Shown here: positions 11,986 through 51,544 of the stretch, piece after piece
How the letters are laid out: every line of letters begins with the position of its first letter
Numbering within the stretch: position 1 is the first letter of the stretch
Source of the DNA: Schmidtea nova
Lineage: Eukaryota
Direction of reading: 5' to 3'
DNA: 64,000 bases
NCBI GenBank assembly: GCA_044892505.1
Contig: CM097882.1
Location: 100,130,001 to 100,194,000 of the forward strand
The notes under the pieces: generated by a model
What the model was told of the DNA's origin: nothing
The model's database searches: none
Seen by the model: the letters and a program-made list of their open reading frames with translations, nothing else
Program-made: the position numbers and the translations under genes

Positions 11986-11992
11986 GATGAAA

Positions 11993-28188: not shown

Positions 28189-28440
28189 ATTAATCTACTT
28201 TTATTTCATTTTTTTCTCTATTTGGCTGGCCCAACATCACTCGGGGACCCCTAAAATTGCGTCCCGCAATTAATTATACATTTACACCTATATCATCATA
28301 CATAAAAATTAAGCAGATAAATGTCAATTTACATATACACAAAGAATCACGTAAGGTGATAGATTTTATACGTAAGCACAAAGTCATATTATTGTTAAAT
28401 GTAAGTGGATCATACATAAAGTGAATGTAATATATCAGTT

Positions 28441-30272: not shown

Positions 30273-31655
30273 TTACGTCAACCATTCTTTTCTATCCGCT
30301 TTCTCATTCCTTTCCATTTCTATGTATAGGGTGTCTGCATATAATCGTTCCCATAGGCTTTCTTTCGTTATAAACATTGGTTCTCCCGCTGCTAATCCAC
30401 ATTCTGTGGTTGGTTTCTCGCTCGTACTCGCATGTTTCTCTGTCTCAAAGAATTTTTCTACTGGTTTTGTTACACTTCTGATTCTAATGATGACTCCTAC
30501 TTTCAAGGGCCATTCTACTAGGTCGTCGTATTCTCCTTTACATAGCGAGAAAAATATTGACACATGTGTTCCTCGTCCTCTTCCGTCTCCATTTGGGTAT
30601 AGCTTCAATCTCACTTTAGCTCCGTTTCTCCATAAATAAAATGGTGGGCTTATTACTGCTGTTTTCGTCATATTTCTGGCCTCTGTTAATTTGTTTCTAA
30701 AATCTGTCACTTTCCACACATATGGTGCGATTGGTAACTTTTCCTCGGTATCCTGGGTGAGTTTGTTGTACTGGATTTTCATTCCTTTAGCCAGTTCTTC
30801 GATAGCTTTTATCTTTTCCTCCATCTTTTCTCGTGTTAGTTCGAATTGCTCTCTGGTTTCCAACAGTAGGTTTACCATTATCTTGTGTGACTCTATTTCT
30901 CTTTCTAATTTTTTGATTGTTTGTTCGGTTTCTTTTGTTGCTTCGTTTGTCATTTCCGCATGCTTTAGTAATGCTTCCTCCAGATGTTGTTTCATGGTTT
31001 TTTGCGTTCTTTTCTCCATACATCCCTGTTTGTTATAAGGACATTCCCTTGGTTTCTCCGTGCACACTTTCCAATGTTCTTGTAATTTTACTTCTACCGT
31101 TATCTCGCATTCGTTTGAACATATTCCTACATATTGTCTACATACTTTCTCCTCTTTTATATTCAGGTGTTCTTCTTCGATCTTTCTCCTCGTTTCTCGA
31201 GTTCCACAATATTCGCATAGACTTTCCTCTTCTTTACATTCATCTTTGTGCTGCTCTTTATTCTTTATAGTTATTTTTTGTTGGCATTTGTTACATTCAG
31301 TTCTCTTCTCTTCGCAGTTCTCCAGATGGTTCTCGAGATCGCGTATTTGTCCTTGCCATATACATGGTTGATTTATACATTCGGTTTTCGTGTTCATGAT
31401 TTCTCTCTGAGTTGCTCTATCTGGTCCGGTTTCTTCGAATTTTATTTGACCTTCTTTGCATTCTGGACATTCTGGTGGTCTTTTCATACTTAACTCGTGT
31501 ATGCATTTGGTACATACTCTGCATCCGCATAGGGTTTGTCTTGGTTTCAATATTATGTTTTTACAATTTACACAAGTGAGTCTCAGACTCCATTTCCTGT
31601 TCTCGGCTCTCAAAATTTCGATTATCCGCTCTTCGGCTTTTCCTTCTGTATTCAT
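30273..31655 (-). CDS. TRAF: Full-length intronless TRAF (RING, TRAF zinc fingers, coiled coil, MATH/TRAF-C), 460 aa
   Basis: RING CVNC..CGCRVC..C..CPEC; fingers such as CINQPCIWQGQIRDLENHLENC; TRAF-C YVWKVTDF..SPPFY..YPNGDGRGRGTHVSIF..GEYDDLVEWP. Confidence 0.95.
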   Translation of the reverse strand: MNTEGKAEERIIEILRAENRKWSLRLTCVNCKNIILKPRQTLCGCRVCTKCIHELSMKRPPECPECKEGQIKFEETGPDRATQREIMNTKTECINQPCIWQGQIRDLENHLENCEEKRTECNKCQQKITIKNKEQHKDECKEEESLCEYCGTRETRRKIEEEHLNIKEEKVCRQYVGICSNECEITVEVKLQEHWKVCTEKPRECPYNKQGCMEKRTQKTMKQHLEEALLKHAEMTNEATKETEQTIKKLEREIESHKIMVNLLLETREQFELTREKMEEKIKAIEELAKGMKIQYNKLTQDTEEKLPIAPYVWKVTDFRNKLTEARNMTKTAVISPPFYLWRNGAKVRLKLYPNGDGRGRGTHVSIFFSLCKGEYDDLVEWPLKVGVIIRIRSVTKPVEKFFETEKHASTSEKPTTECGLAAGEPMFITKESLWERLYADTLYIEMERNEKADRKEWLT

Positions 31656-31745
31656 TCTACAATGATATATACACTTGATTTGTTATCTATTTTTTGATTT
31701 TTCTTGTTTTTGTTTTACATATTTACAATTTTTCGCTTTATTTAT

Positions 31746-32102
31746 CTACGGCTCGTTTGTTGAATCTGGTTCTGGGTCGTTTTCTGATCTGTTTATTGCC
31801 CAATTTGTCCATCCATCCTCTGCTTCTTCTGTCTCTCCCATTGTTAAACGGTCTATCTCTATTGCTTGTCTCTGATTTATGTCGCTCATCACTTGATTCT
31901 CTCTGGTAAGTTGCGTTATCAATCTCTGTTGCTCCTCGATTCTGTGGAGTTGTTCAAAACTATTATTATAACTTTCGGATAACAAATTCTGTTTCTCAAT
32001 TAACTGATTTTGTAGTGAGTTGATTGTTCGTATTAACATGTCACACTGGGCTTTCCATCGCATAGCCATAGTAGTTTCTGCTATTTCTTCCTGTTCGTTC
32101 AT
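31746..32102 (-). CDS. Accessory ORF, 118 aa, coiled coil with acidic tail
   Basis: ATG start, Q/E-rich heptads, collinear with the other accessory ORFs and set between AT-rich spacers. Confidence 0.7.
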   Translation of the reverse strand: MNEQEEIAETTMAMRWKAQCDMLIRTINSLQNQLIEKQNLLSESYNNSFEQLHRIEEQQRLITQLTRENQVMSDINQRQAIEIDRLTMGETEEAEDGWTNWAINRSENDPEPDSTNEP

Positions 32103-32227
32103 TTTCTAAATTATATACATTAATCGTTTTCTCGATTTCTCTTTTTATATTTTTATAATATCGATACCCATACTATTACGGTAATGCATTGTTATTTACA
32201 CTATTATTTACAGTCATATCCCGCCTC

Positions 32228-35200
32228 CTATATCACCATCACTGTCTCTCCTTCGTATCGCTCTTCATCTTCTATTTGTCTCCAAAATTCTTTGCCTTTC
32301 GTCCTCCTTTGAAATTCTTTCTGTACTTCTTCCGGTAATTCTATACTGTAGTTCATAATCTTTATATCTGGCCAATGTGTTATTGGTTTCTTGTTGAATA
32401 CATCATATATCCATATTATTAATAATACTGTTATTACTGGAATAGTTGCTGCTAGTATTCCCAGACCAATTAGTTCTCTAACTTGTTTGTTTACGTCCAT
32501 CTTCGTAATTTCACTCTGGTTAATCATTGGTCCGTATTGTCCCTTTAGTTTATTTAGTAGTTGTTCTCGTTCTTGTTGTTTTCTTTTAACTTCTTTAATT
32601 ACTTCTTCCGGCGTCCATCTTGCGTAAGGGTCTATTACTACTTGTTCCGCGTCCATTTGTTTCGTTGTCTGACTTATTTCTTTAAATTCGAGTTTTCTCA
32701 CTTTCCCTTTGGACGTTGAGTTTACCGGTGTGTAGTACGTTTCGCATCTTTCCTGCTGATTTCCTAATATGTCCGTCTTTTCTACCGCACATATCTCGTA
32801 TTCGCTATTGAATTTCAGATTTCTGATACTTATTTCCTCTTTTCCTTTCACGTTTCCACAGTCTCGTGGCTGTCTTTCCCTTTGTTTCTGAACTATTACC
32901 CAACATATTTCTAACGTTTTATTGTCTATTCTCCATAGTATAAGAGTTGCTGTAGTATTCTTTTCGGTTCTTATTTGTATTTCTTGGTTTTTCTGTTGTC
33001 CATTAGGTTTAAAAGTAGTGGTATACCTCGTTTTTCCTTTGTTCCGTTGTCTTCTGCTTTTTCGCGTTGTCTTTCCAATTCTTGTTCTGGTGGGTGTTTT
33101 ATATATTTTGCATTCCAGTTCATTTACTGTTATTTTGTCGCTCTTCCTGATCAGGCATATTTCGTACGTTTGATTACTTTCTAACCCTTCTATCTGTATT
33201 GTGGTTGTTCCTCTGTTTGTTCGACATTGCGGCGGTGTATTCTGGTTTGTTTTCTTTTCCTGCTTCTTCCAGCATACGCCTTTGACGTCCGGTTCCATTC
33301 CGGTTAACTCTAACATTATAGTTGTTCTCCGTTTGGTGCGTTTATTTCTTCTTCCTCGTCGTATGAACTTTATTGTTTCCCCAGGTTGAAATGTTTTACA
33401 AATTGTCGTTCCTTTCTTGTGTCTTTCTTTTTCTAGTAAACATAGTTCATACGTCCTGTCTGCTTTTACTTCTGATATCTTGGTTACTTTATTTGTTTTC
33501 CTTTTCCGACTCGTCTTTATTTCGCTTACGCCAATTTCTTCGTTGCTTCTGGCCCAACACTTTGGGTTGGTGTTTTGGGTGTCGTTCATCTCTGTTACTG
33601 CCATTGTGTCAATGTCTATCCCTTCTTCTAACCGTTTTAACATTGTTAATATGAGTGCTAAACATAGTAATTCTGCTTGGTAGGTCACTCTTTCAGTTTC
33701 ATTTGTGGTTACTCTTACTTCGGGCCTGTCTATGGTAATTTGTATAGTTGGCGTTGTTCGTCTGTCTATTGTCTGAGGTTTCTTGTTTTTTGTTCCTTGT
33801 GTCTCTGTTCTTCCACACTTTCCTACGACATAGTCTCCTTTGGATGACTGCTGTACTGTTATGGTTACTTTGGGTGTTAGGTAATTTGCACATGCAATTG
33901 TCTTATGTGATCTCGGATCCTTTGGTTTCCGAACGGTGCACATTCTGTACCAAGTATCTAGCTCTAAGTCATCGATCTCTATGATTTCTTGTTCATATTC
34001 TGAGATCCTGCAATCCATTGGACTATTTTGTCCCGATATTTTGTCCTTTTTTGACCAACATACTCGTTCGATTCCTTTTGCGTTTCCAATTTGTATTGTC
34101 GCTTTTTCTTCACATATCATTCCTTGAGTTGGACTAATTAAGGTCATGATTACCGTTAGTAATAATAGTTCTGGTTTAAAGAATGGGTTTATTGTTTGTT
34201 TGTAGCCTGTTCTTTTTACTTCGTTTTTATTTTTATAGTTGTTGTTTCTTTGTTTCCCAAATTCATTGTTCTTATCATTTTTCTCTGTGTCCCTTCCTTT
34301 CTCTTCACTGTCCTCTTTATCTGATAACTCATGATCCTCTGGATTTTCTCGAGTACTATCGTCGTCGTTTCCTGTATTGTCACCTCCCCTTTGGTCGTTG
34401 AAAATGTCGTCCTCGACATTAACTGCTTCTATCATTTTTTCATACGTTATGGTTGTGAGTATACTTGCTTCGTATTCTTGTGTTACTGCCTGCTTAGGTA
34501 TTTCCTTATCGGTTAATTTACAATCTAGAATCTCTTTCTTGGCTTTTATCCAATTATTAAGGTACGTTTTCATTAGTTCTTTCCATTTGTCCGTACGTTC
34601 TGTTTCCTTTGGGTTGTTTGTGAATCGTAAATCTTTTCTTCTCATGAAGATGTCTATTATCTTTGGCCATTTGTTTATTATTAATGCACACTTTATATAC
34701 AAATTTTGGCCTTGTTCCATGCACTCGTTGATCCTGAATGCTGGTTCATTGGTGTTTGGGTTCATCCAATTGAGTATTGCTTCAGTTAGTTCAGCGTTAT
34801 GCATCATGGAATGTACGCTAGCTTTTTTAACTGTCCTTGTAAGGTATTCTATTTCCTCCTGATTTGTGATTGTTTTTATGAAATTTATCACCTCCCAATT
34901 GTGCGCTAACAACGCTACGTCTAGTATTGAGCTGTCTTTGTTAGTTCTTCCCATGAGTCCTGCACCTGCTTCGTACAGTTCCTGTAACACTCGGGTTTTT
35001 GTGTTCGCTCTTGCTGCGAATATCATGAGGGTATCTCCCTTTTTATCTTTCATGTTCATGTCACTTCCGCAATCTTGCATCAACCGTGCAATTTCGACTA
35101 CCCTCCTATCTTTTCCTGCTCGTAAGGCTCTATGTATTGGCAATACTCCATTCTTTGTTAATAAGAAAGTCACTGGCATTTCTCTTTTTATGATCATCAT

Positions 35201-38200
35201 ATCGTTTTCATTGTAAGTTCCTTCCGCATATGCGTGTACCTTTTCCACAATTGATCCGAGTATCTCCAGTGTATGTTTAGAATTCTCGAATTCTGGTAAT
35301 AGTTCTTTTGCTTTGTCCTGTATCGCATCTAACCTTTCTTGATATGGTACCTCTGCGCTGAAAAGTGGTGTAAATTTCCTTTTGCTTTCTCTTTCCTTTC
35401 GACCTAGGAATTGTTTGCATTTTTCGGGGTGGTTTAATATGTCTACTAGTTTGTCATACTCTTCCTCCACCGTTTTGTACTTATCTTGAAAATTGGATAT
35501 ATCTTTGTAAGTTATCGACTTGGTTAGCGATTTTGCACACCATTCCCTAATTTTCCTGAATAATGCTTCTTTTTCGCTTTCGAATTTACACTCCTCTTTG
35601 TTTTTGGAAATTGTGATCTTTCTTCTGTCCAATAATATTAACAGTGTTTTCTGATCACAAACTAATTTTAATAGGAATTGAAATAACGCGTTTTGTCCTT
35701 TACTGTATACTTCGTTTATATTTAATACCCATGTATCATTTTCGGATCTTTTCCATTTTATTAGCTTGCGTATTGTTTTGCAGTTACCGATTTTTATTGC
35801 CTCCTTGATTATATCACCTTTGATCAGTTCGTCTATTTCCCAAGTGGCCTTCTCGATTATTTGTTTGAGCATTATCTGATTTGAGCTCCATATTGCGTGA
35901 TTCAAGACTGTTTTGTTTTCTCTATCGCGTTCCGTCCAGTTGAAATCGGCATTTATCAAAAGGTCTATTATTGCTTTATCCGATTTGTAGATGGCTGCTA
36001 CCATTAATGGTGTTTCTTGTTCGCTATTCCCAAAACCAAGGTGTTGGTTTGTTTCCTTAGCGATTTTTAGAAATTCTTTTACTCTCTCTACTTCTCCCCA
36101 TTTTATGGCGTTATGTAATGCTGGTTGTCCTCCTATGTCTTCTAGTGAAAGTATTTCTGGAATCTTTTCCAGTAGTTCTGAAATGACTGGTTTTGTTGGT
36201 AGTCCCCTTGCGTAATCACTAATTATCGACTGAATATCTCTTAATATATCGTCTCTGACATGCCATTTTCCCATTATTTCTCTGGCTTTTAGTACAATTT
36301 CCTTGTTTCTTTTTTCTCGTTGATTGTTCTCTGCTTCGGTACTTTCATTGGTTGCTCTGAGCATATTCATTCTGGCTGTCTGGGATCTGGTTATTATTCG
36401 TTCTTCTGGCGCTGTGGTTATTGTCTTTGGTACTTTTTTACATCTGCATGTATTAACGTATATTGGTCGTATCAATGGTCGATTAACAAGTTTTACCTTC
36501 ACATTGTTTTCCTTTTTGTATATAACTTCGTAAGGGCCTTTTCCTGGTCTTTGTAGTTTTTTAACGGTTCCTGGTATTATTTCTGGGGTTTCTATCATCA
36601 CCCAATCTCCTGGTTTAAGATCATTTGTTTTAACATTTTTCTTTTGATCGTGTAGGTCCTTGTAACTTTCTTGGTAAAACTTTATGTTCAGTTCAGCTGT
36701 CTTCCATATCTCTTGCATTCGTTCTTTGAATTTGGTGACGTAATCATCTTCCTCCATATATTGAGACAAAGGTGGTTGATATTCAAGATCTATTGGCATA
36801 TTGCATTCCCTTCCATACATTAATTGAAATGGACTCAATTTTGTTGCTGCGTGTGTCGACATTCTGTATGCCATTAGACATAGCTTTACGTATTCATCCC
36901 AATCTGTTTGGTGTTTGCTTACATAATTGGATAACATTCGAATCAATGTGCCGTTAAATCTTTCCGTTTGTCCATTGGTTTGCGGATGATATGGTGACGT
37001 TCGTAATTTAGCTATTCTGAAGTAATTTGTTACTTCATCTAGTATTTCGCTCATAAAATTTGTTCCTTGATCTGTTAGTATTTGTTTCGGGGTTCCGTAT
37101 CGACAACATATTTCCTCTACTAAAATTCTTGCTACGGTCTTTGCTTTTTGATCCGGCATCGCAAATGCTTCAGGGAATTTAGTCAAATAATCCGTTATTA
37201 CCAATATATATTGATTCCCGTTTAAACTTTCTGGCAATGGTCCTATTACATCCATCGCAATGGTAGTCATTGGTTCCGCTGGTATTGGCATGGGTTTTAA
37301 GGGATTTTTCCATTTCTTCCCACTATCCTTTCTTGTGGCACAAGTTAAACAGTTCTTTATCCATTCCTTTACGTCTTCGTCCATTGTTGGCCAATAATAT
37401 TTCTGTCTCATACGATCTAATGTTTTCTTAGAGGACATGTGTCCTCCTAGCTTTCCGTCATGGTATTGAGTTATTATCTCTTTTCGTCTATTACTTGGCA
37501 GACACATTAATCGTTTTTCTCCATCTTGTATTAACAACCATCCTTTTTCTATTGTGTATCGGTGTTGGTATTTCCTCATGTGTTCTTTTAACTCCGCATT
37601 GTCTTCGAATACATCCATATTTCGTGAGCTTAGAAATTCTATGATGGGTTTTAGTTCTTTATCCTCTTGCTGATCTTTCTTTAACTCACTGAAATCCAAG
37701 TCCTCTGCTATCACTATGCATATTCTTTGCACTTCTGGGTCTGTTAGTTCTGGAAACGTTAATCTTGACATACAATCTGCGTTGGCATTCGCTTTTCCTG
37801 ATTTGAATTTTATATCTGGTGAATATTCTTGTAATTGCATCGCCCATCTCATCAACCTGCTGGATGTTTCCTTGTGTTGTCCTAGCCATACAAGTGGTTG
37901 ATGATCCGTGGTTATGCATATAACGTGTCCCCATAGTAGATATTTAAAGTGTTTTATTGCTAATATTATCGCCAATGCTTCTCTTTCCGTTACTGAATAA
38001 TTCTTCTCGTGTTTCTTGAATGTTCTGCTATAATATCCGATTACCCGCTCTTTTCCCTCGTCATCATATTGTCCTAACACTGCTCCTGCTGCATATCCAC
38101 TTGCGTCGGTTGCGAGTAAGAATGGCTTTTTAAAATCCGGGTGAACCAATATTGGTGCAGTTATTAACTTATCTCGTAATGTTTCGAAGGCTGTTTGTTG

Positions 38201-41200: not shown

Positions 41201-44200
41201 TAATTTAACATCGTTCGTGTGTACTTTGCGTTTCGCACTAGGTACTTCTTGTTTTGATACAAAAATGCCGGGGTAGTTGGTTTCCAACATGGCTACTCCG
41301 CATTTCAAGGCTGTTTTTCCTTTTACAAACCTCATTCCGATATCTGCATCTGAGGTAATTAGTACCGTTGGTGTATTTCTCATTTTAATTTGTTTTTCTT
41401 GTGTTCGGGTTTCAATCTTTTTCTCTCCCCGTACTGTGTCTTGAAGTATTTTTCCTCTTGCTGCCTCGTCTTCTTCTTCCTCTTGGAAGGTTTTCCCTTG
41501 TATCTCATCGAATTCTGCTTCCTTTAACAGTTGTAGTTGACATTCCTTTCCTCGTATCTGGTAGGTTAGGGTTGACATACCAGTCTGACAAGTGTTTGAC
41601 TCGATTTTGCACATAGGTAGAGTTTTCATTTCTCCCGTCGTTGGATCGAAGAATGCCTCGTACGTTTTTAGTTCCACTGTATACGTATCTATTACCACTA
41701 GGTTTGTTGCTGCTACTCCGAATATTGGATATGTTGCTCCTTGGCAGTACCCTTCTCCTCCCGTAATAGCTCCTGCTACATAATATGTTTGTTGCAATAT
41801 CACTCCCGTTTTTCCTCTTATCTTTACTCTATCTCTAGTCTCTACTTCTCCATGTTTAAATAATTTTTCACAGTCTTCTCCTTGCAGCATTACCGATTCT
41901 CTTTCCGTTCCTGGCATCACGATTGCTGAATAATGGCGGTGCCCACAATAAAAAGCAAATCTGGTTTTATAAATTTTGCATTCTCTGACCATTGTTCTTA
42001 TCAGTTCAGCTTCCTGATATACGTGGTATAATTGTCTCTTTTTTAATGTTTTTAGCTCCGTTGGGGTTGCGTCTTTACATTGTTCTGTCCCTCGTAATGA
42101 GTATTTTTCCCCTAATGCCATTTGATCGCAATCGAATACTTCAAATGCTGTTGCGCCGTCAGTACTAATCATCCATATTAACATCATCATAATAATGGAA
42201 CTCAAGTTTAGTGACGATTTCCCGTTTCCTGTTCCCGACTTTTCCTTTTCCAATTCTCCCAATATCTCTTCGAATTTCCTTTTCATATTTTTGGCTTGGT
42301 TTTTCTTTTGGTTCGTTTCTGTGAATGTTTCCCATCCTCCTTTACTGATGATGTACGGTTCTATTTCCTTCTCTATAATTTTGGCTGTATTCTTTATATG
42401 TCTTTCAAGTGCTGTGGGTTTCAGTCGACCTCTACTCAGTGTCAGCAGATTGTAGATGGTGTATGCCATAGCTATTAAATATTTGTTATCCGTCTCTGCT
42501 CCTTCCGTTAACTTCTTTATCAACATCGTGGTTCCTTGCCAATCTAGGTGGTTTGACCTTGTCTTCTCTTTTATTAATTCTGGTAGGATTGGTGCGATGG
42601 CGCTATGCAGTGATTTCGCCCTTTCGCTTATTTCGTTTATTCTCCACCATTTCTTTAATTCTGGATCGATTATTGCCAGTATTTCCATTAACATCTTTGA
42701 TATCCATTCCTCGCCTTGGTATGTTTGTGTTGTTTCTTTTTCTTTCGTTTCGGCTATTTTATTTAGTTTCTTTAAACACAAATCCCATTGATCCCGTCTT
42801 TTTTCCTCTCTTGATTTTATAACTACATTTGCTGGATCCATCTTGGGTCTACCTCTAGGTCGTTTATCCATTGTCGTGCCCGTTTCTACCAATCTTGTTT
42901 CTCGTCCAGTTTCTTCTGTGACGTCTCTTGGTTCATTGGCTCTTTCTTCTAACCATCTTTCCATTTCTTGTGTGAATTGTACATTTTCTACATTTGCCCT
43001 CCTTGCTTCCTCTTCTGCTATTTCATTTACTTCTTCGATGATTATTTCTTGTTCAACTTCATCTTCGGTGTTGGTTACCGGTATTGCTGTTGGTAATTCT
43101 TGAATTCTTTCGAAAATATTATCATCCTTCTCTTTTGTTAGCTCTATTAACTCCTCTAACATATCATCGCTATCTGTAAAAATTTCGTCTACATCGTATG
43201 GTTCTGGTGGTGTTCTTTCTCTTGTCTCTCTTGGTGTTGTTTTAGCTTGTTCTGAGCTTGTTCCTGGAGTCATTACCGATTTCATTGGGCTCGGCGTACT
43301 CATACTTCCTTTTGGTTTCTTTTCCTCTTTCAATTTCAATGGTTGGCCTGCTATTGCTGCCACTGTCAATGTATTTGCGATATCTAATTGCGCTGGCGTT
43401 ATTCCAATTTCCAAGCTGTTATCTAATGATCGTCCTTGGTGTTGTAAATGGAATGGTGGTTCATATCTCAATTTCTTTTTAATGTCTCGAACTTTCTCCG
43501 CTATCCCTACCCAAAACTCTTCCTTTTCTTGGTTCGGATATACTATTCTTAGGTGTACTTTCTGTGGCGATTCCTGCGAGAATTCTTGGTTTCTCCATTT
43601 TTTAATTACGTGATCCAATTGTTCTGGACACCACTCGTTAACTCTTTTGTATTCGGCGATTGCTTTTGCTACTTTACGCAAGCATGTTATGTCTTCTCCA
43701 TTAACTACGAAAAAATCTGCGAGACCTTTTACTACTTTTCTCTTGCCGTGCGCATTGGTTTTTAATATTTCGACAAATTCTTCCGTTTTTTGTTTTTCTC
43801 TTTCCAACCACATGGTTGTCGTTTCTGGTCCGTCTAAATCTGCTGGCATGGCTTTTCTTGTTACCATACAGACTCTTCCGGTTTCCGGTTTGTGATCGTC
43901 TTCTATGCCTATTCCGTATTCCTCTTCGTATTCGCCTGCTTTTGGTTCCCAACATTTTCCTCGTTCGTTCCATTGTTTTTCTACAGGTGTTGGTAATCGT
44001 CTGTTGAGATTGAGTTCTTCTAATACGTCTTCCCATTCTGGCCAAATCCGCCAATTTCGATAAATGTCTACTATTTGTTGTAATTTATGCACAACTTCTT
44101 TTTGTCGTTCCCGTTCTCTTTTCTCATCCTTAGCAGTTTCTCTTGGTGTATCGTCCATTCTGATAACGTGGATGGTTTGGTGATTATCCCATATACCAAT

Positions 44201-47200
44201 TTTATATAGCCGTCTTTCATCGTGATCCCATAATACATGTTCGTTATATTTCATGATTATGTCATCTTCCCATTCTTCTTCTGGTTCTCTTTGTAATAGT
44301 GTCTCGTTGATGACATTTACTAATTCTTTTATGGTACAATCTGCTACCACTTCAATTTCTTTGGTATCCTCATTAGGCAGTTCCACTGAAATTTTTAGAT
44401 CTGTTATTTTTCCTTGTCTAAACATTGCTTTTCCCATTTTGGCAATTACTTTTCCGTATGAGATCTGTGACCATCTCGTGTGACTTGTGTCACGTATGCA
44501 CTCGATACATCGTTTCAACTTTTCGTATTCGCTTCTCATTAACTCCTTTCTATGTTTTTTGATTTGTGGGATGATTTGTTCTATCATGGAATTTAGATTT
44601 CCTCGTAAGATTCGTCCTTTTTCGTATTCTAACCGTGGTTTTATCTTCCTCTCGAAACACATATTTGCTTCTTTTGCTACTTCTTGTAGGTTCTCTTCTC
44701 TCTTATCATCGCATATCGATAATGTTGTCACCTCTCCTGGCCATATGCCTGTTTCTATCAAATGCGTCCTTTTCTTCACTAGTCCATTCTGTGAATAGAG
44801 GAATTTGTTTTTATATGAACTCCCTAATCTATCTTCTACCCATTGATAGATATCTTCCGTGAGTGGAGTTTTGATCCAAATCCTTGGCAAACATGTTTTT
44901 ATCTCTATTAGGATTATATATTCATGGAGTGGTTCTTTTAATAATTTTCCTACGTATTGGCTTAGTGTTTCTACTTCCCGGCCTGGTAACCACTCTTTAT
45001 AGTTCATTTGTAATATTGCTCTCATGAATTTTCTATAGTGTTTCTTGTCAATGAATTCCTCATTATATATTACTTCTAGCGCGTTATCTAATAATTTCTG
45101 GATCTCGTCCTCTTTTACTTGAATAGTTTCTGGTGTCTTTACTACTTCTATCTTTTTGTCTTCAATTTCCGGTTCGTTTAGCATATCTCCGGCTAGACTA
45201 CTGACGTCACTATCCTCTTCGTCATCTGAGAATTTCTTTGCCTGGCCTCTCAACATGTTAATGTGTTTTATTTGGTTGATTTCACTTGGTGTATTTTCCG
45301 TTGGTCTTGTTTCACTTTTAATAGCTTTTTGTGTTGATTCACTCTTGTCGTCTACTACTCCGACCTTTCTCATTTTTCGTTCTAACTCGTCTATTTCTCC
45401 CAACCGTCTTCGTATCATTTTCCCTTTAAATATTCGACTGATTCGTGTTTCGTGACGCACTGGCGATGGAATTCCTTCTGGTTCTATTTCCTTGATTACC
45501 ATCACATTTCTTTTTGTCTCTACTACTCCCAGGTTTTCCCATGTATCCGTTAGTTTCAATTTTACTTCTGGTGCACCTTCTATTTTTAGGAATGCTTCTC
45601 TGGGCAGTTTCGTTACTCCTGGAGCCATTTCATTCACTTTATTGAACAATATTTCTACTTCTTCTTTTATGTTATATTGGAATCGAAACACGTGCTTGTT
45701 TGGCAAAATTACCATCATTCCTCTTTTCCCGAGTTTCCTTTTCTCTTCTTGGTTCCCTTCTTTTTCTACTTCCTTTTCTGTTTCTTTTTCTGCTTCTTCA
45801 TCTTCTTGTATTATCTCTTTTCGGCCTTCGTTGTTGGTTGGATTCGGGTTTGTTGGATTTATTTCTGGTACAGTCTCTTTCTCGTGGGTATTTGTTTGAT
45901 TGGTTGCTCTCATCATATTAATTCTTAGAGGTTGTCGTTCTCTTTCTTGCTGTTTTTGTTCCTCTTCTCTTTGTATTCTTGCCCATTCCTGAGCATGTCG
46001 TGCTTGACTTTCCCGATTCAATCGTTCGTTTTCGCTTTCTATTTTCCTCATCATATTGATTTGTTGTTGACCTGTTTGCGGATTTCCTCTGGTTGTATTG
46101 TTTATCAGCTCCGTCAATCTTTGGACCTCTTGCATTAAATGTATCTCTTTAGTGGTATTTTTATTTTGGTTATTATTATTACTATTTGGTTGGTTTCCGT
46201 ATTCCGGTTGGTTTCCATTATTTGGCTGATTTCCATAATTCTGTCGATTTCCACCAGTTGGTTGGTTTCCATAGTTTTGTCGGTTTCCGGTATTCTGCCA
46301 GTTTCCTCGTTGATTGCTTCTTTGTCCGCAATTTCTTGATAGGTGTCCAGGCCGTCCACAATTAAAACAGGTTATTGTGTAACATCTGCTCTCTGAATGC
46401 CCTTTTACTCCACATTTTCCACAATTCAAGTTCTGATAACATTCTTGTTGCCAATGTCCCAATTTCCCACATGTTTTGCATTGTTTCGTTGGTCCTTGGG
46501 GGTTGTAATTGTTTTGATTTCCGTAATTTGATACTTTATTCCCTTCATTCCTTCGTTGCGGTGGTGGTCGGTTTAATTGTTGTGAATTTGGAATGTGGTT
46601 ATTCAGGTTCACTTCTTGTTCGTTTTGTGCTGTATCCATAGCTAAATAGATTCTACCATCATTTCCTATCATGTGTAGTTCAAATCTATTAGCTGTTTCT
46701 AGTGCTTGGTCGATGGTTTTACACCCTTGACATCCAACTTGCGCTCTTATGTCGGGTCTTCTTAATCCTCCCACAAAGATAGCTGCCATTAACTCCTCAT
46801 TTATTGGGCTGTCTTGATTAAAGATCAACTTTGCTAACTTTTTCAATTCGCTTGCATATACCGCATTCGATTCATTTATCTTTTGTTTCCTCATTGAGAA
46901 TTCCGTGAATGCCTCATTCAATACTTTATTTATTCCAAAGGTTTGTTGGAAAAAGTCCTTTATCGCTGACCAACTTGTAGGTGGATTAGTTCCATTCTTT
47001 GCTTCCAAATATAGATCTAATGCGCTATCTTTCAAATATAGCTGAATTCTGCTTACAGTTGTTTCTGGTTTCCACTTGCATACTTCCACGAATATGCCAA
47101 ATTCCTTTAAGAAAGTTTCTAATTTACTCGCATCTCCATTAAACGGTTCTCCGGAAAATTTGTCTTTTATCTCTTCTCTTGGTTCACTCATTTCGATTCC

Positions 47201-47617
47201 GCTGTCTGTAGTTATTTTACTTTCGTTTCCTCTTGTTTCTAGTTCACTGTTAGGTTCGTCACTTGAATTTCGGTCGATCTCAGTTTCCTTTGCTGATTCG
47301 TTATCTGATGCTTTACTATCGTTATCGGTGTCGTCACTTTCTGTTTCTTGTTCTACTTCGTCTTCTATTTCTTCTATATAATCGTTGTTGGTTTTGTCGA
47401 CTTCTATTTCACTTATTGGGTTTCTCTCGGGTTCTGCTTGATTTTCTTTGTTGCTTGAACTGTTGCTTGTTACTGATAATTTATCGTTTTCGATAATCGA
47501 CTTTTGTATTATTATCTGCCTTGCTTTACTTCCTTTTGGGCCTTTCTGATTATTATTCTTGGTAGCTTTATTCTTTTCTGCTGGTTTTATTATGACACTC
47601 TTTTCTCCTTTTCTCAA
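32228..47617 (-). CDS. Single ~5,100-aa Gag-accessory-Env-Pol-ANK-FN3 polyprotein (track start is TTG; first ATG at 47191)
   Basis: 5,129 codons without a stop, carrying Gag, CCHC x3, DTG protease, YIDD RT, RNase H, HHCC/DDE integrase and additional domains. Confidence 0.97.
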   Translation of the reverse strand: MRKGEKSVIIKPAEKNKATKNNNQKGPKGSKARQIIIQKSIIENDKLSVTSNSSSNKENQAEPERNPISEIEVDKTNNDYIEEIEDEVEQETESDDTDNDSKASDNESAKETEIDRNSSDEPNSELETRGNESKITTDSGIEMSEPREEIKDKFSGEPFNGDASKLETFLKEFGIFVEVCKWKPETTVSRIQLYLKDSALDLYLEAKNGTNPPTSWSAIKDFFQQTFGINKVLNEAFTEFSMRKQKINESNAVYASELKKLAKLIFNQDSPINEELMAAIFVGGLRRPDIRAQVGCQGCKTIDQALETANRFELHMIGNDGRIYLAMDTAQNEQEVNLNNHIPNSQQLNRPPPQRRNEGNKVSNYGNQNNYNPQGPTKQCKTCGKLGHWQQECYQNLNCGKCGVKGHSESRCYTITCFNCGRPGHLSRNCGQRSNQRGNWQNTGNRQNYGNQPTGGNRQNYGNQPNNGNQPEYGNQPNSNNNNQNKNTTKEIHLMQEVQRLTELINNTTRGNPQTGQQQINMMRKIESENERLNRESQARHAQEWARIQREEEQKQQERERQPLRINMMRATNQTNTHEKETVPEINPTNPNPTNNEGRKEIIQEDEEAEKETEKEVEKEGNQEEKRKLGKRGMMVILPNKHVFRFQYNIKEEVEILFNKVNEMAPGVTKLPREAFLKIEGAPEVKLKLTDTWENLGVVETKRNVMVIKEIEPEGIPSPVRHETRISRIFKGKMIRRRLGEIDELERKMRKVGVVDDKSESTQKAIKSETRPTENTPSEINQIKHINMLRGQAKKFSDDEEDSDVSSLAGDMLNEPEIEDKKIEVVKTPETIQVKEDEIQKLLDNALEVIYNEEFIDKKHYRKFMRAILQMNYKEWLPGREVETLSQYVGKLLKEPLHEYIILIEIKTCLPRIWIKTPLTEDIYQWVEDRLGSSYKNKFLYSQNGLVKKRTHLIETGIWPGEVTTLSICDDKREENLQEVAKEANMCFERKIKPRLEYEKGRILRGNLNSMIEQIIPQIKKHRKELMRSEYEKLKRCIECIRDTSHTRWSQISYGKVIAKMGKAMFRQGKITDLKISVELPNEDTKEIEVVADCTIKELVNVINETLLQREPEEEWEDDIIMKYNEHVLWDHDERRLYKIGIWDNHQTIHVIRMDDTPRETAKDEKRERERQKEVVHKLQQIVDIYRNWRIWPEWEDVLEELNLNRRLPTPVEKQWNERGKCWEPKAGEYEEEYGIGIEDDHKPETGRVCMVTRKAMPADLDGPETTTMWLEREKQKTEEFVEILKTNAHGKRKVVKGLADFFVVNGEDITCLRKVAKAIAEYKRVNEWCPEQLDHVIKKWRNQEFSQESPQKVHLRIVYPNQEKEEFWVGIAEKVRDIKKKLRYEPPFHLQHQGRSLDNSLEIGITPAQLDIANTLTVAAIAGQPLKLKEEKKPKGSMSTPSPMKSVMTPGTSSEQAKTTPRETRERTPPEPYDVDEIFTDSDDMLEELIELTKEKDDNIFERIQELPTAIPVTNTEDEVEQEIIIEEVNEIAEEEARRANVENVQFTQEMERWLEERANEPRDVTEETGRETRLVETGTTMDKRPRGRPKMDPANVVIKSREEKRRDQWDLCLKKLNKIAETKEKETTQTYQGEEWISKMLMEILAIIDPELKKWWRINEISERAKSLHSAIAPILPELIKEKTRSNHLDWQGTTMLIKKLTEGAETDNKYLIAMAYTIYNLLTLSRGRLKPTALERHIKNTAKIIEKEIEPYIISKGGWETFTETNQKKNQAKNMKRKFEEILGELEKEKSGTGNGKSSLNLSSIIMMMLIWMISTDGATAFEVFDCDQMALGEKYSLRGTEQCKDATPTELKTLKKRQLYHVYQEAELIRTMVRECKIYKTRFAFYCGHRHYSAIVMPGTERESVMLQGEDCEKLFKHGEVETRDRVKIRGKTGVILQQTYYVAGAITGGEGYCQGATYPIFGVAATNLVVIDTYTVELKTYEAFFDPTTGEMKTLPMCKIESNTCQTGMSTLTYQIRGKECQLQLLKEAEFDEIQGKTFQEEEEDEAARGKILQDTVRGEKKIETRTQEKQIKMRNTPTVLITSDADIGMRFVKGKTALKCGVAMLETNYPGIFVSKQEVPSAKRKVHTNDVKLHLYMNNKMDFLFHRGQASLQKVYYDLINNDCILNREILKTKLAVAITNPDSAMPLLPLREGHFGRVVGEVMYVYICKKTNAKVATMTKLQPGQCTNELEIEYKGKVRYVQPVTRIINPVSFEPNPFNCSNAYGPLYQKPDGNWVMFPSRTEVPAPREFELMQLSKGRKFKDVDVSNMGFYSAKDLEAARQNILFPARREAVLSSIVTITGGTNYQGGPNYELLLSPAHFKKATENMMKAMWGRFLIFGQMMAGILGVILIIQIIRVIITQMLACFDIYKREKKVNWKLVVGFLPFLAKTMVLHGHSKDIHRIKRLLKILAKMKGTDEEVGRKFKKIMNNEQARQQLKKERKGLWERMKGYRTQDDSSDDDDDDNEGGQVFKNQVPQYVEKNPAEMWKCYAPPPTMYQEPTPGMRQNTMQMMPMTNIYPMIPEDYRTRRCRSVDPQGDSHTIAVMSSNTGPVLTTTIEINGREIEAMIDTGANISAIDIKWIPQEQRRDIERTNVHVIACSKEVVEVAGRWWVKIKHQNTEIETYVAVIPALSVPCIIGTDLMPALFKEIVIDLGTMRLKDRTGQICAIEAKVTSSKQIIVPARREKICFVKIDPTIEGDMIFEPSKRFEKRKSLPMARGLVSANDNGEIPITVVNFDEEDKIIYENERLGKLTPMMDIEIPIKEGVKEEEPTWNIDSQLLNEDQKKQLERLLIEYKDIFAASDLDLGTCDVTLHTIPLTDETPIALRPYKLAEAQKSVAEAEVQKMLDAEVIEPSCSPWQFPVVMVKKKDGTQRFCIDYRRLNAVTKRDTYPLPDINEMLLTLQGAAYFTSLDLKSGYWQIKMKEEDKEKTAFTIGRDLYQFRKMPFGLTNAPASFQRCMNFVTHGIKQCMVYIDDLLIYSSTFEQHIQDIRDVFVRLRQWKLKLKPSKCDWAKEKVTFLGHIVSAKGKEPDPRNIDKVKECPVPKTITQIQEFLGLCGYYRKFIKDYAGIAKPIQELVKKDVSFIWGSEQQTAFETLRDKLITAPILVHPDFKKPFLLATDASGYAAGAVLGQYDDEGKERVIGYYSRTFKKHEKNYSVTEREALAIILAIKHFKYLLWGHVICITTDHQPLVWLGQHKETSSRLMRWAMQLQEYSPDIKFKSGKANANADCMSRLTFPELTDPEVQRICIVIAEDLDFSELKKDQQEDKELKPIIEFLSSRNMDVFEDNAELKEHMRKYQHRYTIEKGWLLIQDGEKRLMCLPSNRRKEIITQYHDGKLGGHMSSKKTLDRMRQKYYWPTMDEDVKEWIKNCLTCATRKDSGKKWKNPLKPMPIPAEPMTTIAMDVIGPLPESLNGNQYILVITDYLTKFPEAFAMPDQKAKTVARILVEEICCRYGTPKQILTDQGTNFMSEILDEVTNYFRIAKLRTSPYHPQTNGQTERFNGTLIRMLSNYVSKHQTDWDEYVKLCLMAYRMSTHAATKLSPFQLMYGRECNMPIDLEYQPPLSQYMEEDDYVTKFKERMQEIWKTAELNIKFYQESYKDLHDQKKNVKTNDLKPGDWVMIETPEIIPGTVKKLQRPGKGPYEVIYKKENNVKVKLVNRPLIRPIYVNTCRCKKVPKTITTAPEERIITRSQTARMNMLRATNESTEAENNQREKRNKEIVLKAREIMGKWHVRDDILRDIQSIISDYARGLPTKPVISELLEKIPEILSLEDIGGQPALHNAIKWGEVERVKEFLKIAKETNQHLGFGNSEQETPLMVAAIYKSDKAIIDLLINADFNWTERDRENKTVLNHAIWSSNQIMLKQIIEKATWEIDELIKGDIIKEAIKIGNCKTIRKLIKWKRSENDTWVLNINEVYSKGQNALFQFLLKLVCDQKTLLILLDRRKITISKNKEECKFESEKEALFRKIREWCAKSLTKSITYKDISNFQDKYKTVEEEYDKLVDILNHPEKCKQFLGRKERESKRKFTPLFSAEVPYQERLDAIQDKAKELLPEFENSKHTLEILGSIVEKVHAYAEGTYNENDMMIIKREMPVTFLLTKNGVLPIHRALRAGKDRRVVEIARLMQDCGSDMNMKDKKGDTLMIFAARANTKTRVLQELYEAGAGLMGRTNKDSSILDVALLAHNWEVINFIKTITNQEEIEYLTRTVKKASVHSMMHNAELTEAILNWMNPNTNEPAFRINECMEQGQNLYIKCALIINKWPKIIDIFMRRKDLRFTNNPKETERTDKWKELMKTYLNNWIKAKKEILDCKLTDKEIPKQAVTQEYEASILTTITYEKMIEAVNVEDDIFNDQRGGDNTGNDDDSTRENPEDHELSDKEDSEEKGRDTEKNDKNNEFGKQRNNNYKNKNEVKRTGYKQTINPFFKPELLLLTVIMTLISPTQGMICEEKATIQIGNAKGIERVCWSKKDKISGQNSPMDCRISEYEQEIIEIDDLELDTWYRMCTVRKPKDPRSHKTIACANYLTPKVTITVQQSSKGDYVVGKCGRTETQGTKNKKPQTIDRRTTPTIQITIDRPEVRVTTNETERVTYQAELLCLALILTMLKRLEEGIDIDTMAVTEMNDTQNTNPKCWARSNEEIGVSEIKTSRKRKTNKVTKISEVKADRTYELCLLEKERHKKGTTICKTFQPGETIKFIRRGRRNKRTKRRTTIMLELTGMEPDVKGVCWKKQEKKTNQNTPPQCRTNRGTTTIQIEGLESNQTYEICLIRKSDKITVNELECKIYKTPTRTRIGKTTRKSRRQRNKGKTRYTTTFKPNGQQKNQEIQIRTEKNTTATLILWRIDNKTLEICWVIVQKQRERQPRDCGNVKGKEEISIRNLKFNSEYEICAVEKTDILGNQQERCETYYTPVNSTSKGKVRKLEFKEISQTTKQMDAEQVVIDPYARWTPEEVIKEVKRKQQEREQLLNKLKGQYGPMINQSEITKMDVNKQVRELIGLGILAATIPVITVLLIIWIYDVFNKKPITHWPDIKIMNYSIELPEEVQKEFQRRTKGKEFWRQIEDEERYEGETVMVI
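32398..34175 (-). other. Polyprotein domain: second signal peptide, four FN3-like repeats, C-terminal TM
   Basis: PELLLLTVIMTLISPTQG|MICEE. Repeats show CW...IDDLELDTWYRMC / ISEVKADRTYELC / IEGLESNQTYEIC / IRNLKFNSEYEIC, multiple N-X-S/T sequons, and TM LIGLGILAATIPVITVLLIIWIY. Confidence 0.7.
34880..36145 (-). other. Polyprotein domain: two ankyrin-repeat clusters
   Basis: GGQPALHNAI, ETPLMVAA, KTVLNHAI, GVLPIHRAL, GDTLMIFAA, SSILDVAL. Confidence 0.85.
36480..37480 (-). other. Polyprotein domain: integrase (HHCC, DDE, GPY)
   Basis: YHDGKLGGH..CLTC; IAMDVIGPLP; LTDQGTNF; GQTERFNGTL; GKGPYEV. Confidence 0.95.
37780..39010 (-). other. Polyprotein domains: reverse transcriptase and RNase H
   Basis: RFCIDYRRLN, LDLKSGYWQI, MPFGLTNAPASFQ, YIDD (38543-38554); TDASG, TEREALA, TTDH. 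Confidence 0.97.
39480..39830 (-). other. Polyprotein domain: aspartic protease
   Basis: EAMIDTGANIS (DTG at 39761-39769) and CIIGTD. Confidence 0.95.
40290..42215 (-). other. Polyprotein domain: chuvirus/Jingchuvirales-type fusion glycoprotein (Env) with internal signal peptide and TM
   Basis: Signal IIMMMLIWMISTDGATA|FEVFDC. Conserved Cys pattern and motifs FYCG, TNYPGIF, LYMNNK, GEVMYVYIC, CTNEL, QPVTRI and GFYSAKDL..ILFP; TM at ~40380-40472. Confidence 0.8.
42320..42712 (-). other. Polyprotein domain: BCL2-like helical domain
   Basis: ~130-aa all-helical segment ending EPYIISKGGWETF, a BH2 motif (cf. BCL-xL EPWIQENGGWDTF); the canonical BH1 NWGR is absent. Confidence 0.65.
43352..45725 (-). 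other. Polyprotein region: three to four ubiquitin-like folds alternating with helical segments
   Basis: Examples: LKISVELPNEDTKEIEVVADCTIKELV..LYKIGIWDNHQTIHV; LRIVYPNQEKEEFWVGIAEKVRDIKKKL..HLQHQGRSLD; LIETGIWPGEVTTL. Confidence 0.5.
46150..47191 (-). other. gag: Polyprotein domain: Gag (capsid-like region, three CCHC knuckles, N/Q/G-rich repeats)
   Basis: FSGEPFNGD..RKQKINES..FVGGLR; CKTCGKLGHWQQEC, CGKCGVKGHSESRC, CFNCGRPGHLSRNC (46328-46480); GNRQNYGNQP repeats. Confidence 0.93.
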
Positions 47618-48165
47618 CGGGATTACTTTTGTATACTCAATTTTCCTGTCTTATCGTGTTCCGATTCTTTTCTTCCTTAGTTGATTGGTTTGGTTTGATT
47701 GATTTATCTAAAATACAAATGTCACTTCAACGATACTCTATTGTTATCGTTGCGCTTTTATTCCCTTTTTACGGGACTTCTCATTACTGGGTTTCTATTA
47801 TTTTTCCCCATTCCCAGATTCCCCTTTATTTAAGTCTATTTAAATTATCTATATACTAGTCACAATTATCTATTTAGTCATAACAATTATCTATCGGTTA
47901 TTAAAATACATCAATTATTTTTCCCGCGGTCTCCCAATTTATTTGTCGTTCGAACGCTCTAATTCCCTGAGTCATTTGACTCGATTATTATTTTTTCATC
48001 TCTTTATCTTTCTCTCTGCTAGCCTCTAATTATTAATTCTGCCGGTCTTTCCGGTCAGCTCCTATTTCTCAATTCTACTTGCATGCATTATTTTAGGTCG
48101 CATAATCAGCTTTACTCGCATTTCTCAATTCCTGGTGCGCACTATTCTCATTATCGTCGACGATC

Positions 48166-48381
48166 ACAACTCTGGGCCTATATTCCCTCTGTTGTTATTT
48201 CTTATCACTTGCAACCCTGGGCCTATATTCCCTCCGTTGCTACTCAAACGATTGTAACCCTGGGCTTATATTCCCTCCGTTACTATCTTCCTTTAATTTT
48301 AAATAATTGCAACCCTGGGCCTATATTCCCTCCGTTGCTACTCAACAATTGTAACCCTGGGCCTATATTCCCTCCGTTACT
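48166..48381. repeat. Leader tandem array 1 (5 copies of a 26-bp core)
   Basis: aaccctgggcctatattccctccgtt at ~48168, 48213, 48256, 48311 and 48353. Confidence 0.9.
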
Positions 48382-48427
48382 ATATATCCGGATATCCCTA
48401 TTGGCTCCTTTGGCCTCTAATTAATAT

Positions 48428-48592
48428 CAATTATCTCAAATGGCTCTTATGGCCTCAAATTCATATCTCAACTATCTCAAATGGCTCTATTGGCCTTAAA
48501 TTCATATCTCAATTATCTCAAATGGCTCTATTGGCCTTAAATTCATATCTCAATTATCTCAAATGGCTCTATTGGCCTTAAATCATATCTCT
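48428..48592. repeat. Leader tandem array 2 (4 x 41 bp)
   Basis: atctcaaatggctctattggccttaaattcatatctcaatt starting at 48433, 48474, 48515 and 48556. Confidence 0.92.
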
Positions 48593-48635
48593 CAATAACG
48601 CCTAGCTAGGTCATTCAATATGGCTCTTTGGCCTC

Positions 48636-48851
48636 AACCCTTTGTTTCAAGGGACAAACCGCTGATAACCCTTTGTTTCAAGGGACAAATTCTAATAACC
48701 CTTTGTTTCAAGGGACAACCCGCTGATAACCCTTTGTTTCAAGGGACAAATTCTAATAACCCTTTGTTTCAAGGGACAACCCGCTGATAACCCTTTGTTT
48801 CAAGGGACAAATTCTAATAACCCTTTGTTTCAAGGGACAACCCGCTGATAA
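48636..48851. repeat. Leader tandem array 3 (7 hairpin units of alternating 31/30 bp; 61-bp higher-order unit)
   Basis: aaccctttgtttcaagggacaa at 48636, 48667, 48697, 48728, 48758, 48789 and 48819; ccctt/aaggg is an internal inverted repeat. Confidence 0.93.
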
Positions 48852-49326
48852 CTTTTCCTTAACCGGTTAATCGTAATTCTTAACTTCGCTAGCGACTACA
48901 ATTTCTCAGCTGAGTTCTCTCAATTTCATGCGAGCTGATTATGCACCTCTTATTTTTCTCTATAATTCCTCGATTCTTTGTTTTATTACTAATTCTTTCG
49001 CTGATCAGTCATAATTCAATTTTTATTATTTTCTCTGCGCGCATCTTACCTCCTCAGGGTTTTCCCTATTTCTCTCCCCAACCAAAATATACAAAAAGAT
49101 CGCGTTGGTCTACTAATGCGGGATGTGGTGATCAATCACATCACAAAAGCTTTCCAACATTTGCGATTGGCCCCTTTCTATATACCCCGAGTGGGTTGAT
49201 CAACTGGTACCTCCCAATGGGTGCTTAACGGACTACTTGACAGTAGCTCAAAAATTAATTAACATTGTTGATTGCTCCCTTGACTTTGTCATTCGATACA
49301 ATATATTAACACACTCTAAATATTTA

Positions 49327-49788
49327 TTATAAATAAACTACAATTCTATCAGCTACAGAGAAATTGCACATGGGGCACTCATCACACTTATTCGCACAGT
49401 TTTTACAGAATCGAAAATGTCCGCATGGTAGAAACATTATTTGGATTTCACTGTCTTCGCATATGTAACATTGTTTATATTGTTTTGCTGCTTCGACCCC
49501 TTGTGACATCCATCGGTTATATGTTAGGCTTAACTGCTGTTCTATATGTCGGCATCTGATATTCAACTCGGCATCCTCTAATCGTGCTTTGTACCATTTA
49601 TATCGCGTATTTATATCGAGTTTATTTACTTTCTCTATGATTTTTATTAACTCAGTTGTTTCCTCAGTTTGTGTCGTAGGTTCCTCATATTCGGATGCTC
49701 TTATTCGGGTTATTTTTTCGCAGACTGTCTCAAATGTATCGTTCTCGGTGTTGAAAAATTCCTCGATTTCTTTCAGTTTTTCCTCCAT
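49327..49788 (-). CDS. Upstream accessory ORF, 153 aa, with a C-terminal IAP/MDM2-type RING finger (no BIR)
   Basis: CYICEDSEIQIMFLPCGHFRFCKNCANKCDECPMCNFSVADRIVVYL at the extreme C-terminus; ATG start. Confidence 0.9.
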   Translation of the reverse strand: MEEKLKEIEEFFNTENDTFETVCEKITRIRASEYEEPTTQTEETTELIKIIEKVNKLDINTRYKWYKARLEDAELNIRCRHIEQQLSLTYNRWMSQGVEAAKQYKQCYICEDSEIQIMFLPCGHFRFCKNCANKCDECPMCNFSVADRIVVYL

Positions 49789-50092: not shown

Positions 50093-50110
50093 ATCCCGGC
50101 TGAGCCCCCA
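50093..50110 (-). promoter_or_regulatory. Primer-binding site, tRNA-Pro
   Basis: Minus strand TGGGGGCTCAGCCGGGAT lies 6 nt inside the 5' LTR boundary and matches 16/18 of the MLV tRNA-Pro PBS TGGGGGCTCGTCCGGGAT. Confidence 0.88.
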
Positions 50111-50643
50111 AATTTATGCTGGGATTATGGGTGGGTTTTAAGTAATTCAAATAAACAATTAATCATACTAGGGATTCCGCGCCCATAACCATACATAACA
50201 TGACTACTACACGCGTATGCCCTTGACTATTCCCTACTAGTCAAGTTGGTACTGCATACGGTGGTGGAAAAATGATGGGCAGGTGAGCTTTGTCGCCAAA
50301 ACTACTCCCCATTTATCTTCCCTCGGGTTCTTGCTGCCGATAGAAGGTCTTACGCATTTACATTCTATGGATGTTCGTTTCCTACTGAATTTTATACTAC
50401 ATATCCTTATGATCTATCACACGCTTTTCCCAATGACGCTCTCCCTCGCTGTTCTACAAGCCTACGAAAACTCTCGCTGCTAAGTAACGGTCGGTGTAGG
50501 TTTTACGATGCGATTTTTAGTTCTACGAATTACTTATGTAGTCTTATTTTATTTAGTGAAATCACACGATGAGAGAAAAAATTTACACAGTAATACTTTA
50601 TTAAAATAATAAAGACAGGTTGTTATGTTACATGGAGATTTTC

Positions 50644-51228: not shown

Positions 51229-51544
51229 GTTGTCTGAAGATTATAACGATAAATTCACTGGAGGGCCTATCAACAATGTTATTTTATTTAAACAACTATT
51301 ATTATTATTAAACGAGATGTATATTAATGTTTTTAATTGTTGAGTTCTCTACAAAATTATTTACATATCTAATCATTGAAGACTCAAAAGGTTTATTGAA
51401 CTAATTTTATATTAATAAATGAATTTCCTAATGACTATAACAACTACAATACTAAATCTACAGGACAACACTATTAACAAAACGAACATTTCAGAATTCT
51501 TTAAAACATTTATTTAACTTAAAAACAGGCGGCCATTGATTCAG

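Follow-up and report, generated by a model that had tools for sequence, protein, structure and literature searches.

A Burro-family retroelement of Schmidtea nova carries conserved TRAF, RING, ankyrin and BCL2-like modules that may act on host-cell survival

Burro elements of planarians are the main example of a transposon with cell-death genes. They carry MATH/TRAF, BIR, ankyrin, BCL2-like and ubiquitin/SUMO-like domains together with an in-frame env gene (PMC6431247, section 7), and the same 2019 paper, which includes an element with a 5,140-amino-acid first open reading frame (ORF1) and a separate TRAF ORF, proposed that they meddle with apoptosis and ubiquitination. One member has been reported to support stem cells: a passage of PMC13465017, citing Lee et al. 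2026 (Dev Cell), states that the BIR+RING protein of Burro1 (B-IAP) guards stem cells from caspase-mediated death. BURRO1 is described as PIWI-silenced in a section of PMC8532177. Here we analysed a 64,000-nucleotide stretch of the Schmidtea nova genome (GCA_044892505.1, contig CM097882.1, positions 100,130,001 to 100,194,000; hereafter, the window) and found a 28,772-bp Burro-type element with TRAF, RING, BCL2-fold and ankyrin modules that are conserved between subfamilies. We put at roughly 60% the probability that these modules act on host-cell survival and ubiquitin signalling, keeping element-producing cells alive. The layout of the element and the idea of interference with apoptosis and ubiquitin are already published for the Burro family (PMC6431247, 2019). 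What is brought out here are conserved putative protease sites, a putative env signal peptide that possibly anchors the BCL2-like domain, a single clade of element TRAFs and an IAP-bearing sister element; no priority is claimed for the last, and the supplements of Grohme 2018 and Lee 2026 may cover the satellite and the subfamilies.

The element occupies positions 24791–53562 on the minus strand, as do all of its features below unless otherwise stated. It has TG...CA ends and a 4-bp target-site duplication (GAAC), and comparison of the window with itself shows that its 3′ long terminal repeat (LTR; 24791–28236) and 5′ LTR (50117–53562) are identical over their 3,446 bp. All 18 bases of the primer-binding site (50093–50110) are complementary to the 3′ terminus of a genomic tRNA-Pro(TGG) with CCA appended. 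Together, the identical LTR pair, the ends, the duplication and the primer site indicate one recent insertion that holds all of the modules. The interval highlighted in an earlier note, 30273–49788, is bounded by the TRAF ORF stop codon (30273) and the RING ORF start codon (ATG, 49788), and the claim of that note that one retroelement carries the whole toolkit is borne out: all cargo modules sit within the 28,772-bp LTR element. ORF1 extends over 5,140 codons from stop to stop (32228–47650; codons 47650 to 32231), with the first methionine at codon 154, and encodes, in order, gag, a ubiquitin-like (Ubl) region, a BCL2-like domain, env, protease, reverse transcriptase and RNase H, integrase, ankyrin repeats and a surface protein. 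The size of around 30 kb, the long LTRs, the multiple copies, the MATH/TRAF and ankyrin cargo, the single ORF1 of around 5,000 amino acids with gag and the protease–reverse transcriptase–RNase H–integrase order, and the in-frame env between the BCL2-like domain and the protease are all those of Burro elements. This is an intact, recently inserted, young multi-copy Burro-family gypsy retroelement with env. As a separate observation, a long tandem array of tRNA-Pro(TGG) with a 308-bp period lies at G000:C1:459.61–459.66 Mb (1,105 pattern matches genome-wide).

The TRAF ORF (30273–31655; 460 amino acids) is full-length and intronless, and has the complete architecture of the TRAF family—RING, zinc fingers, coiled coil and MATH/TRAF-C—as the earlier note had stated, with a cysteine in the RING at the place where C3HC4 has histidine. 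It matches Pfam MATH_2 (E = 2e-21), structures of TRAF2/3/5 in the PDB (around 1e-22) and, in its RING region, TRAF6 (5e-11); a protein database search with it found only distant TRAFs. The ankyrin repeats recognized in the earlier note are likewise present, as two blocks within ORF1 (34451–36343; Ank_2, 4.7e-17). Upstream of gag, a 153-amino-acid ORF (49327–49788) combines a helical N terminus with a C-terminal RING of the XIAP/cIAP type, which matches the XIAP RING at 6e-11; the top 10 of 15 PDB matches are to XIAP, cIAP or ML-IAP.

Ahead of env, positions 42281–42865 encode an AT-hook-like RGRP motif and then a BCL2-fold domain, which keeps the BH2 GGW. Sequence comparisons are weak (Pfam Bcl-2, E = 0.12): PDB matches at E values of 0.2–1.8 are all to the BCL2 family (33 of 33 and 46 of 46) and cover the BH2 stretch only, as does a profile comparison with six host-type BCL2 genes (probability of 23%), and a protein database search returned no relative of the region among longer proteins. 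With a model built from a five-row alignment (predicted local distance difference test (pLDDT) of 65), all 44 listed Foldseek rows belonged to the BCL2 family, none at E ≤ 0.001, and the top 22 of 48,161 chains compared by VIA were all BCL2-family proteins (Z of 7.5–5.5; the best, at 7.5, had a root-mean-square deviation of 3.1 over 114 aligned residues). The domain also aligns with a Bcl-2 domain that passes Pfam in a related element (E = 9e-8) and occupies the same slot. A BCL2 helical fold is thus predicted with moderate confidence. Viral BCL2-fold proteins—KsBcl-2, BHRF1, A179L, M11L, A52 and N1L—are among the structure matches. Elsewhere in the genome, at G000:C1:411.01–411.02 Mb, we noted another multi-copy gypsy family with a gag–Ubl–BCL2–env–pol frame of around 3,070 amino acids, the Bcl-2 domain of which passes the Pfam cut-off.

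Between gag and the BCL2-like domain lie three candidate ubiquitin/SUMO-like domains accompanied by helical domains (43343–45733; candidates at 45476–45733, 44147–44413 and 43343–43567). One matches Ubiquitin_4 weakly (E = 0.028), and a 42%-identical homologue of another matches Rad60-SLD, also weakly (E = 0.009); PDB profile searches with alignments of the candidates gave best E values of 0.13–0.54. A model of the region (797 amino acids, 5 rows) has a pLDDT of 38, with a strand–strand–helix start visible, and with this poor model Foldseek and VIA returned noise or generic helical matches only. A CID-like fold guessed by eye for amino acids 1270–1360 received no support from structure comparison. 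One public protein of Burro1 layout matches amino acids 640–1812 of ORF1 at 32% identity (protein database search).

Copies of the element were examined across the genome. All 40 scored matches to the TRAF ORF (of 621 candidates) are 99–100% identical. A search with the BCL2 region (150 scored of 1,200 candidates) revealed a sister subfamily, B, at 82–85% identity, and by hand count open frames of at least 5,000 codons hold approximately 33 of the 81 matches with at least 94% identity, with no stop within the match. Subfamily B has an identical ORF set and order in the four copies examined, with the surface-protein module doubled in tandem, which brings its ORF1 to around 5,660–5,740 codons; subfamily C (around 65% identity, with a TRAF ORF of 476 amino acids) keeps the order and the open frames; and subfamily D, as in Burro1, has MATH inside ORF1. 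We compared the element in the window with three of the four subfamily-B copies by the Nei–Gojobori method. The ratio of non-synonymous to synonymous substitution rates (dN/dS) is 0.06–0.07 for the BCL2-like domain, 0.07–0.12 for the ankyrin repeats, 0.07–0.11 for the RING ORF, for which dS is near saturation, 0.14–0.15 for the TRAF ORF, 0.07–0.31 for the Ubl candidates (0.07–0.08 for Ubl2) and less than 0.01 for the reverse transcriptase. Confidence intervals are below 0.7 for the BCL2-like domain, ankyrin repeats, TRAF ORF, RING ORF and Ubl segments, and along the element dS spans 0.35–2.4. The transmembrane-tail segment has a dN/dS that is not clearly below 1, and saturation prevented the calculation of dS for LTR ORF A, the TRAF coiled coil, one ankyrin comparison and the RING domain taken by itself. 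The cargo modules are under purifying selection.

In a midpoint-rooted tree of TRAF-C domains (40 rows; 19 of the 30 host-type, that is, putative host, loci were used, and P0007 was dropped as short), all 11 rows from elements cluster in a single clade (96/95), nested within the group comprising the other TRAFs of the genome, a result that answers, for TRAF-C, the call in the earlier note for module phylogenies against host genes. This topology fits a single capture of TRAF by the elements. Element-borne TRAFs account for many of the TRAF-domain matches in the genome. Towards the end of one contig (G000:C2, around 405–455 Mb), TRAF-domain loci are densely clustered, in what appears to be a host expansion distinct from the dispersed element-borne TRAFs.

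The arrangement of ORF1 suggests how its cargo could be released. The core genes comprise a gag capsid domain with three CX2CX4HX4C knuckles, two of which pass Pfam (46325–47191); an in-frame env, a Monjiviricetes-type fusion glycoprotein with a transmembrane segment (40391–42145; Pfam PF24664, E = 1e-67); the protease, reverse transcriptase, RNase H and integrase (36401–39838); and a C-terminal surface-protein module (32231–34183) with a signal-like stretch, cysteine-rich FN3-like repeats (weak), a transmembrane segment and a short tail. A motif, [IVM][NCHA][MLAIV][MLIV], is repeated where the protease, RNase H and integrase end and between accessory blocks, and its strict form, [IM]NM[ML]R, occurs 4 times, compared with a mean of 0.012 in 500 shuffles; subfamilies B, C and D retain similar motifs at the borders protease, RNase H/integrase and integrase/ankyrin. 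This is a putative cleavage site of the element's own protease. With a stricter pattern, no site was found between the BCL2-like domain and env. A hydrophobic stretch at that position (42146–42214), judged by eye and below the hydrophobicity cut-off used, is present in five element subfamilies, in which the order of AT-hook, BCL2-like domain, hydrophobic stretch and env is also kept; we regard it as a putative env signal peptide and a possible tail anchor for the BCL2-like domain. The ankyrin block precedes the surface protein in the same arrangement, with a signal-like stretch after the block. We postulate that the element's own protease would cut ORF1 at the conserved motif and that signal peptidase would cut at two places, before env and before the C-terminal surface protein. 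Two proteins would be freed in this way, one with the BCL2 fold and one with ankyrin repeats, each held to a membrane by the signal sequence that follows it. As ubiquitin ligases or adaptors, the TRAF and RING proteins, which are encoded outside ORF1, would redirect the large TRAF family of the host or compete with it. Planarians have more than 121 TRAF/MATH transcripts, and RNA interference (RNAi) of host TRAF increases cell death, as set out in a portion of PMC7586133.

A genome search for BIR domains found matches mostly in frames of 399 codons (150 scored of 1,295 candidates). These are BIR+RING ORFs located between the TRAF ORF and the coiled-coil ORF. The element in the window has no such ORF at this place. 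One IAP-bearing copy was read across its length (G000:C1:569565771–569591573; around 25.8 kb). Its 4.3-kb LTRs share 99.7% identity, it has a 4-bp duplication and the primer site of the element in the window, and it encodes a RING, a Ubl–protease–ankyrin protein, a TRAF and a BIR+RING; no gag, BCL2, env, reverse transcriptase or integrase was detected in this copy. The junction of its Ubl–protease–ankyrin frame is present at full length and at least 98% identity at all 40 locations scored (of 2,073 candidates). Its LTR is 82–83% like that of subfamily D and has no match to the LTR of the window's element. Because gag, env, reverse transcriptase and integrase were not detected and the LTR is related to the Burro1-like subfamily D, this sister element is likely to be a helper-dependent satellite. 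The IAP-bearing family is mixed: two further loci differ in upstream content, with both LTRs shown for one copy only. More speculatively, Burro elements may form a helper–satellite community that splits a host-survival toolkit, in which autonomous families would give particles, the membrane-anchored BCL2-fold protein and TRAF, and the high-copy satellite without gag, reverse transcriptase, integrase or env would give the BIR+RING IAP, TRAF, ankyrin and its own protease, spreading by keeping host cells alive; we offer this as a tentative idea that is doubtful on present evidence.

Several observations weigh against an action on host-cell survival. Purifying selection demonstrates usefulness to the element without telling which use. 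No BIR was found in the element (Pfam and a six-frame spacing scan), so direct caspase inhibition through BIR is unavailable to this subfamily, and the RING ORF has an IAP-type RING without the BIR of IAPs and of B-IAP; the earlier note was correct about an IAP-type RING, but overstated IAP function. For the BCL2-like domain, which that note also claimed, the fold has stood up moderately well, but the match is below Z = 8, a range in which a common helical arrangement can score (tool warning), and NWGR is absent, the domain reading TDNK at the BH1 slot (inferred through alignment with family E); 5 of 6 host-type BCL2 genes keep the NWGR tryptophan. NWGR is the BH1 motif of the BH3-binding groove. 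The Ubl domains claimed alongside are likely, on their weak profile matches, to have ubiquitin-like folds, which the model did not confirm. The element TRAF-C is unlike TRAF3/5 in the SSSF and ASGCP stretches, in which the genome's own TRAFs are likewise variable, and the cleavage sites and membrane anchors are predictions only. Finally, sections of PMC8532177 report that BURRO1 RNA is intestine-enriched and that BURRO1 RNAi gave no improvement of the smedwi-2 phenotype. The proposal in the earlier note that the element suppresses host-cell death therefore survives in outline, through purifying selection, the TRAF clade and the Burro1 BIR+RING report (the passage of PMC13465017), but BIR+RING is absent here, and inhibition of caspases or BAX/BAK by this subfamily is conjectural.

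Other explanations account for parts of the same evidence. The modules might serve the life cycle of the element—particle assembly, trafficking, budding, AT-hook integration targeting or removal of a host restriction factor—without altering cell death. The fusion of the Ubl, BCL2-like and ankyrin modules into gag–env–pol, the missing NWGR and BIR, and the presence of A52 and N1L among the fold matches all suit this explanation; viral BCL2-fold proteins such as these can act outside apoptosis. However, the high-copy relative keeps RING, Ubl, ankyrin, TRAF and BIR+RING without gag, reverse transcriptase, integrase or env, which fits host-directed cargo, and a phenotype is reported for Burro1 B-IAP (PMC13465017, in the passage citing Lee et al. 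2026); we consider a role confined to the life cycle possible, but rather unlikely. The modules could alternatively form a coherent mimic set for TNF-receptor/NF-kB signalling, as in large DNA viruses, with ankyrin as an IkB mimic alongside TRAF and a cIAP-type RING. Although the TRAF-C resembles TRAF2/3/5 and the RING resembles XIAP/cIAP, none of the 24 ankyrin PDB matches at E ≤ 1e-5 is IkB (they are generic ankyrins and DARPins), and the element RING lacks the BIR domains through which cIAPs bind TRAF2. Parts of PMC13563047 describe planarian TRAF genes as TBK1-dependent wound and immune response genes and report seven divergent Rel homology domain (RHD) genes, but no clear NF-kB homologue; our Rel homology search of the genome gave 0 candidates (17 matches for the T-box control), which, given those seven genes, we do not take as absence. 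The TNF–NF-kB label of the earlier note is not upheld, and we judge such a mimic set improbable. Lastly, the modules could be host fragments that a young element captured and carries as neutral passengers, in line with copies within the subfamily being too similar to reveal selection alone. Against subfamily B, neutral evolution of the accessory ORFs, which the earlier note had named as a refutation, is itself refuted by the dN/dS intervals at the divergence given above, and order and open frames are kept in subfamilies B and C; neutral cargo is extremely improbable.

The remaining ORFs of the element match no family. Between ORF1 and the TRAF ORF lies an ORF of 118 amino acids (31746–32102; dN/dS of 0.11–0.16), and downstream of TRAF are a coiled-coil-like ORF of 353 amino acids (29096–30157; 0.10–0.12) and one of 190 amino acids with a hydrophobic segment (28441–29013; 0.27–0.32). 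The 5′ LTR holds a 203-bp tandem duplication and two ORFs (51548–52075 and 50647–51240), which recur in the 3′ LTR at 26222–26749 and 25321–25914; they match no Pfam family and stay open in subfamily B at 29–37% identity. A 207-amino-acid ORF elsewhere in the window (2195–2815) resembles the longer LTR ORF by eye and is perhaps a remnant of a related family. Tandem repeats with units of 30, 31, 41 and 61 bp occupy the leader (48167–48852; no strand given). Two of four unlabelled contig runs were compared with the stretch, which they cover; they contained no visible splice-like joints and are uninformative on expression.

In the rest of the window, the element was apparently inserted in one arm of an inverted repeat of around 440 bp (21927–22365 versus 24646–24791 plus 53579–53881), probably the end of a DNA transposon. 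At 11485–12244, fragments of a PP1-like phosphatase (Metallophos, 1e-23) and of a proteasome subunit (3e-11) overlap immediately ahead of broken gypsy pol pieces (12507–14695); these phosphatase and proteasome fragments are possibly captured retrocopies. An unrelated reverse transcriptase fragment and a second gypsy pol, which runs past the end of the window, lie at 59459–60382 and 62045–64000.

Selection acts on the cargo even where a subfamily lacks the BIR+RING that is reported to be active, which makes the TRAF, BCL2-fold, RING-only and ankyrin products testable candidates. Element-borne TRAFs affect counts of the planarian TRAF expansion and the specificity of RNAi. The IAP-bearing sister element without replication genes is the more surprising lead.

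Compared with known systems, the element recalls the BCL2 and IAP mimics of large DNA viruses in carrying a BCL2 fold, at 5–17% identity, in a mobile genome, but differs in its retroelement polyprotein setting and missing NWGR, with BH3 binding only conjectural. The Burro-like element of Dugesia tigrina (PMC6431247) is alike in its 5,140-amino-acid ORF1 without MATH, separate TRAF ORF, env between BCL2 and protease, and Ubl/SUMO-like and ankyrin domains. Compared by description, that element has its TRAF ORF upstream and two zinc knuckles, whereas the element in the window has TRAF downstream of ORF1 and three knuckle motifs; midasin and dUTPase similarities of the D. tigrina element were not recovered here by Pfam. 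Burro1/GYPSM1 of Schmidtea mediterranea (Jurka 2007 and Grohme 2018, via PMC6431247) is similarly a giant gypsy LTR element with MATH/TRAF, ankyrin and RING cargo. It has a BIR (B-IAP), whereas in the element in the window the RING ORF lacks one and TRAF is a complete ORF of its own; the Burro1 layout itself is shared, in this genome, by subfamily D.

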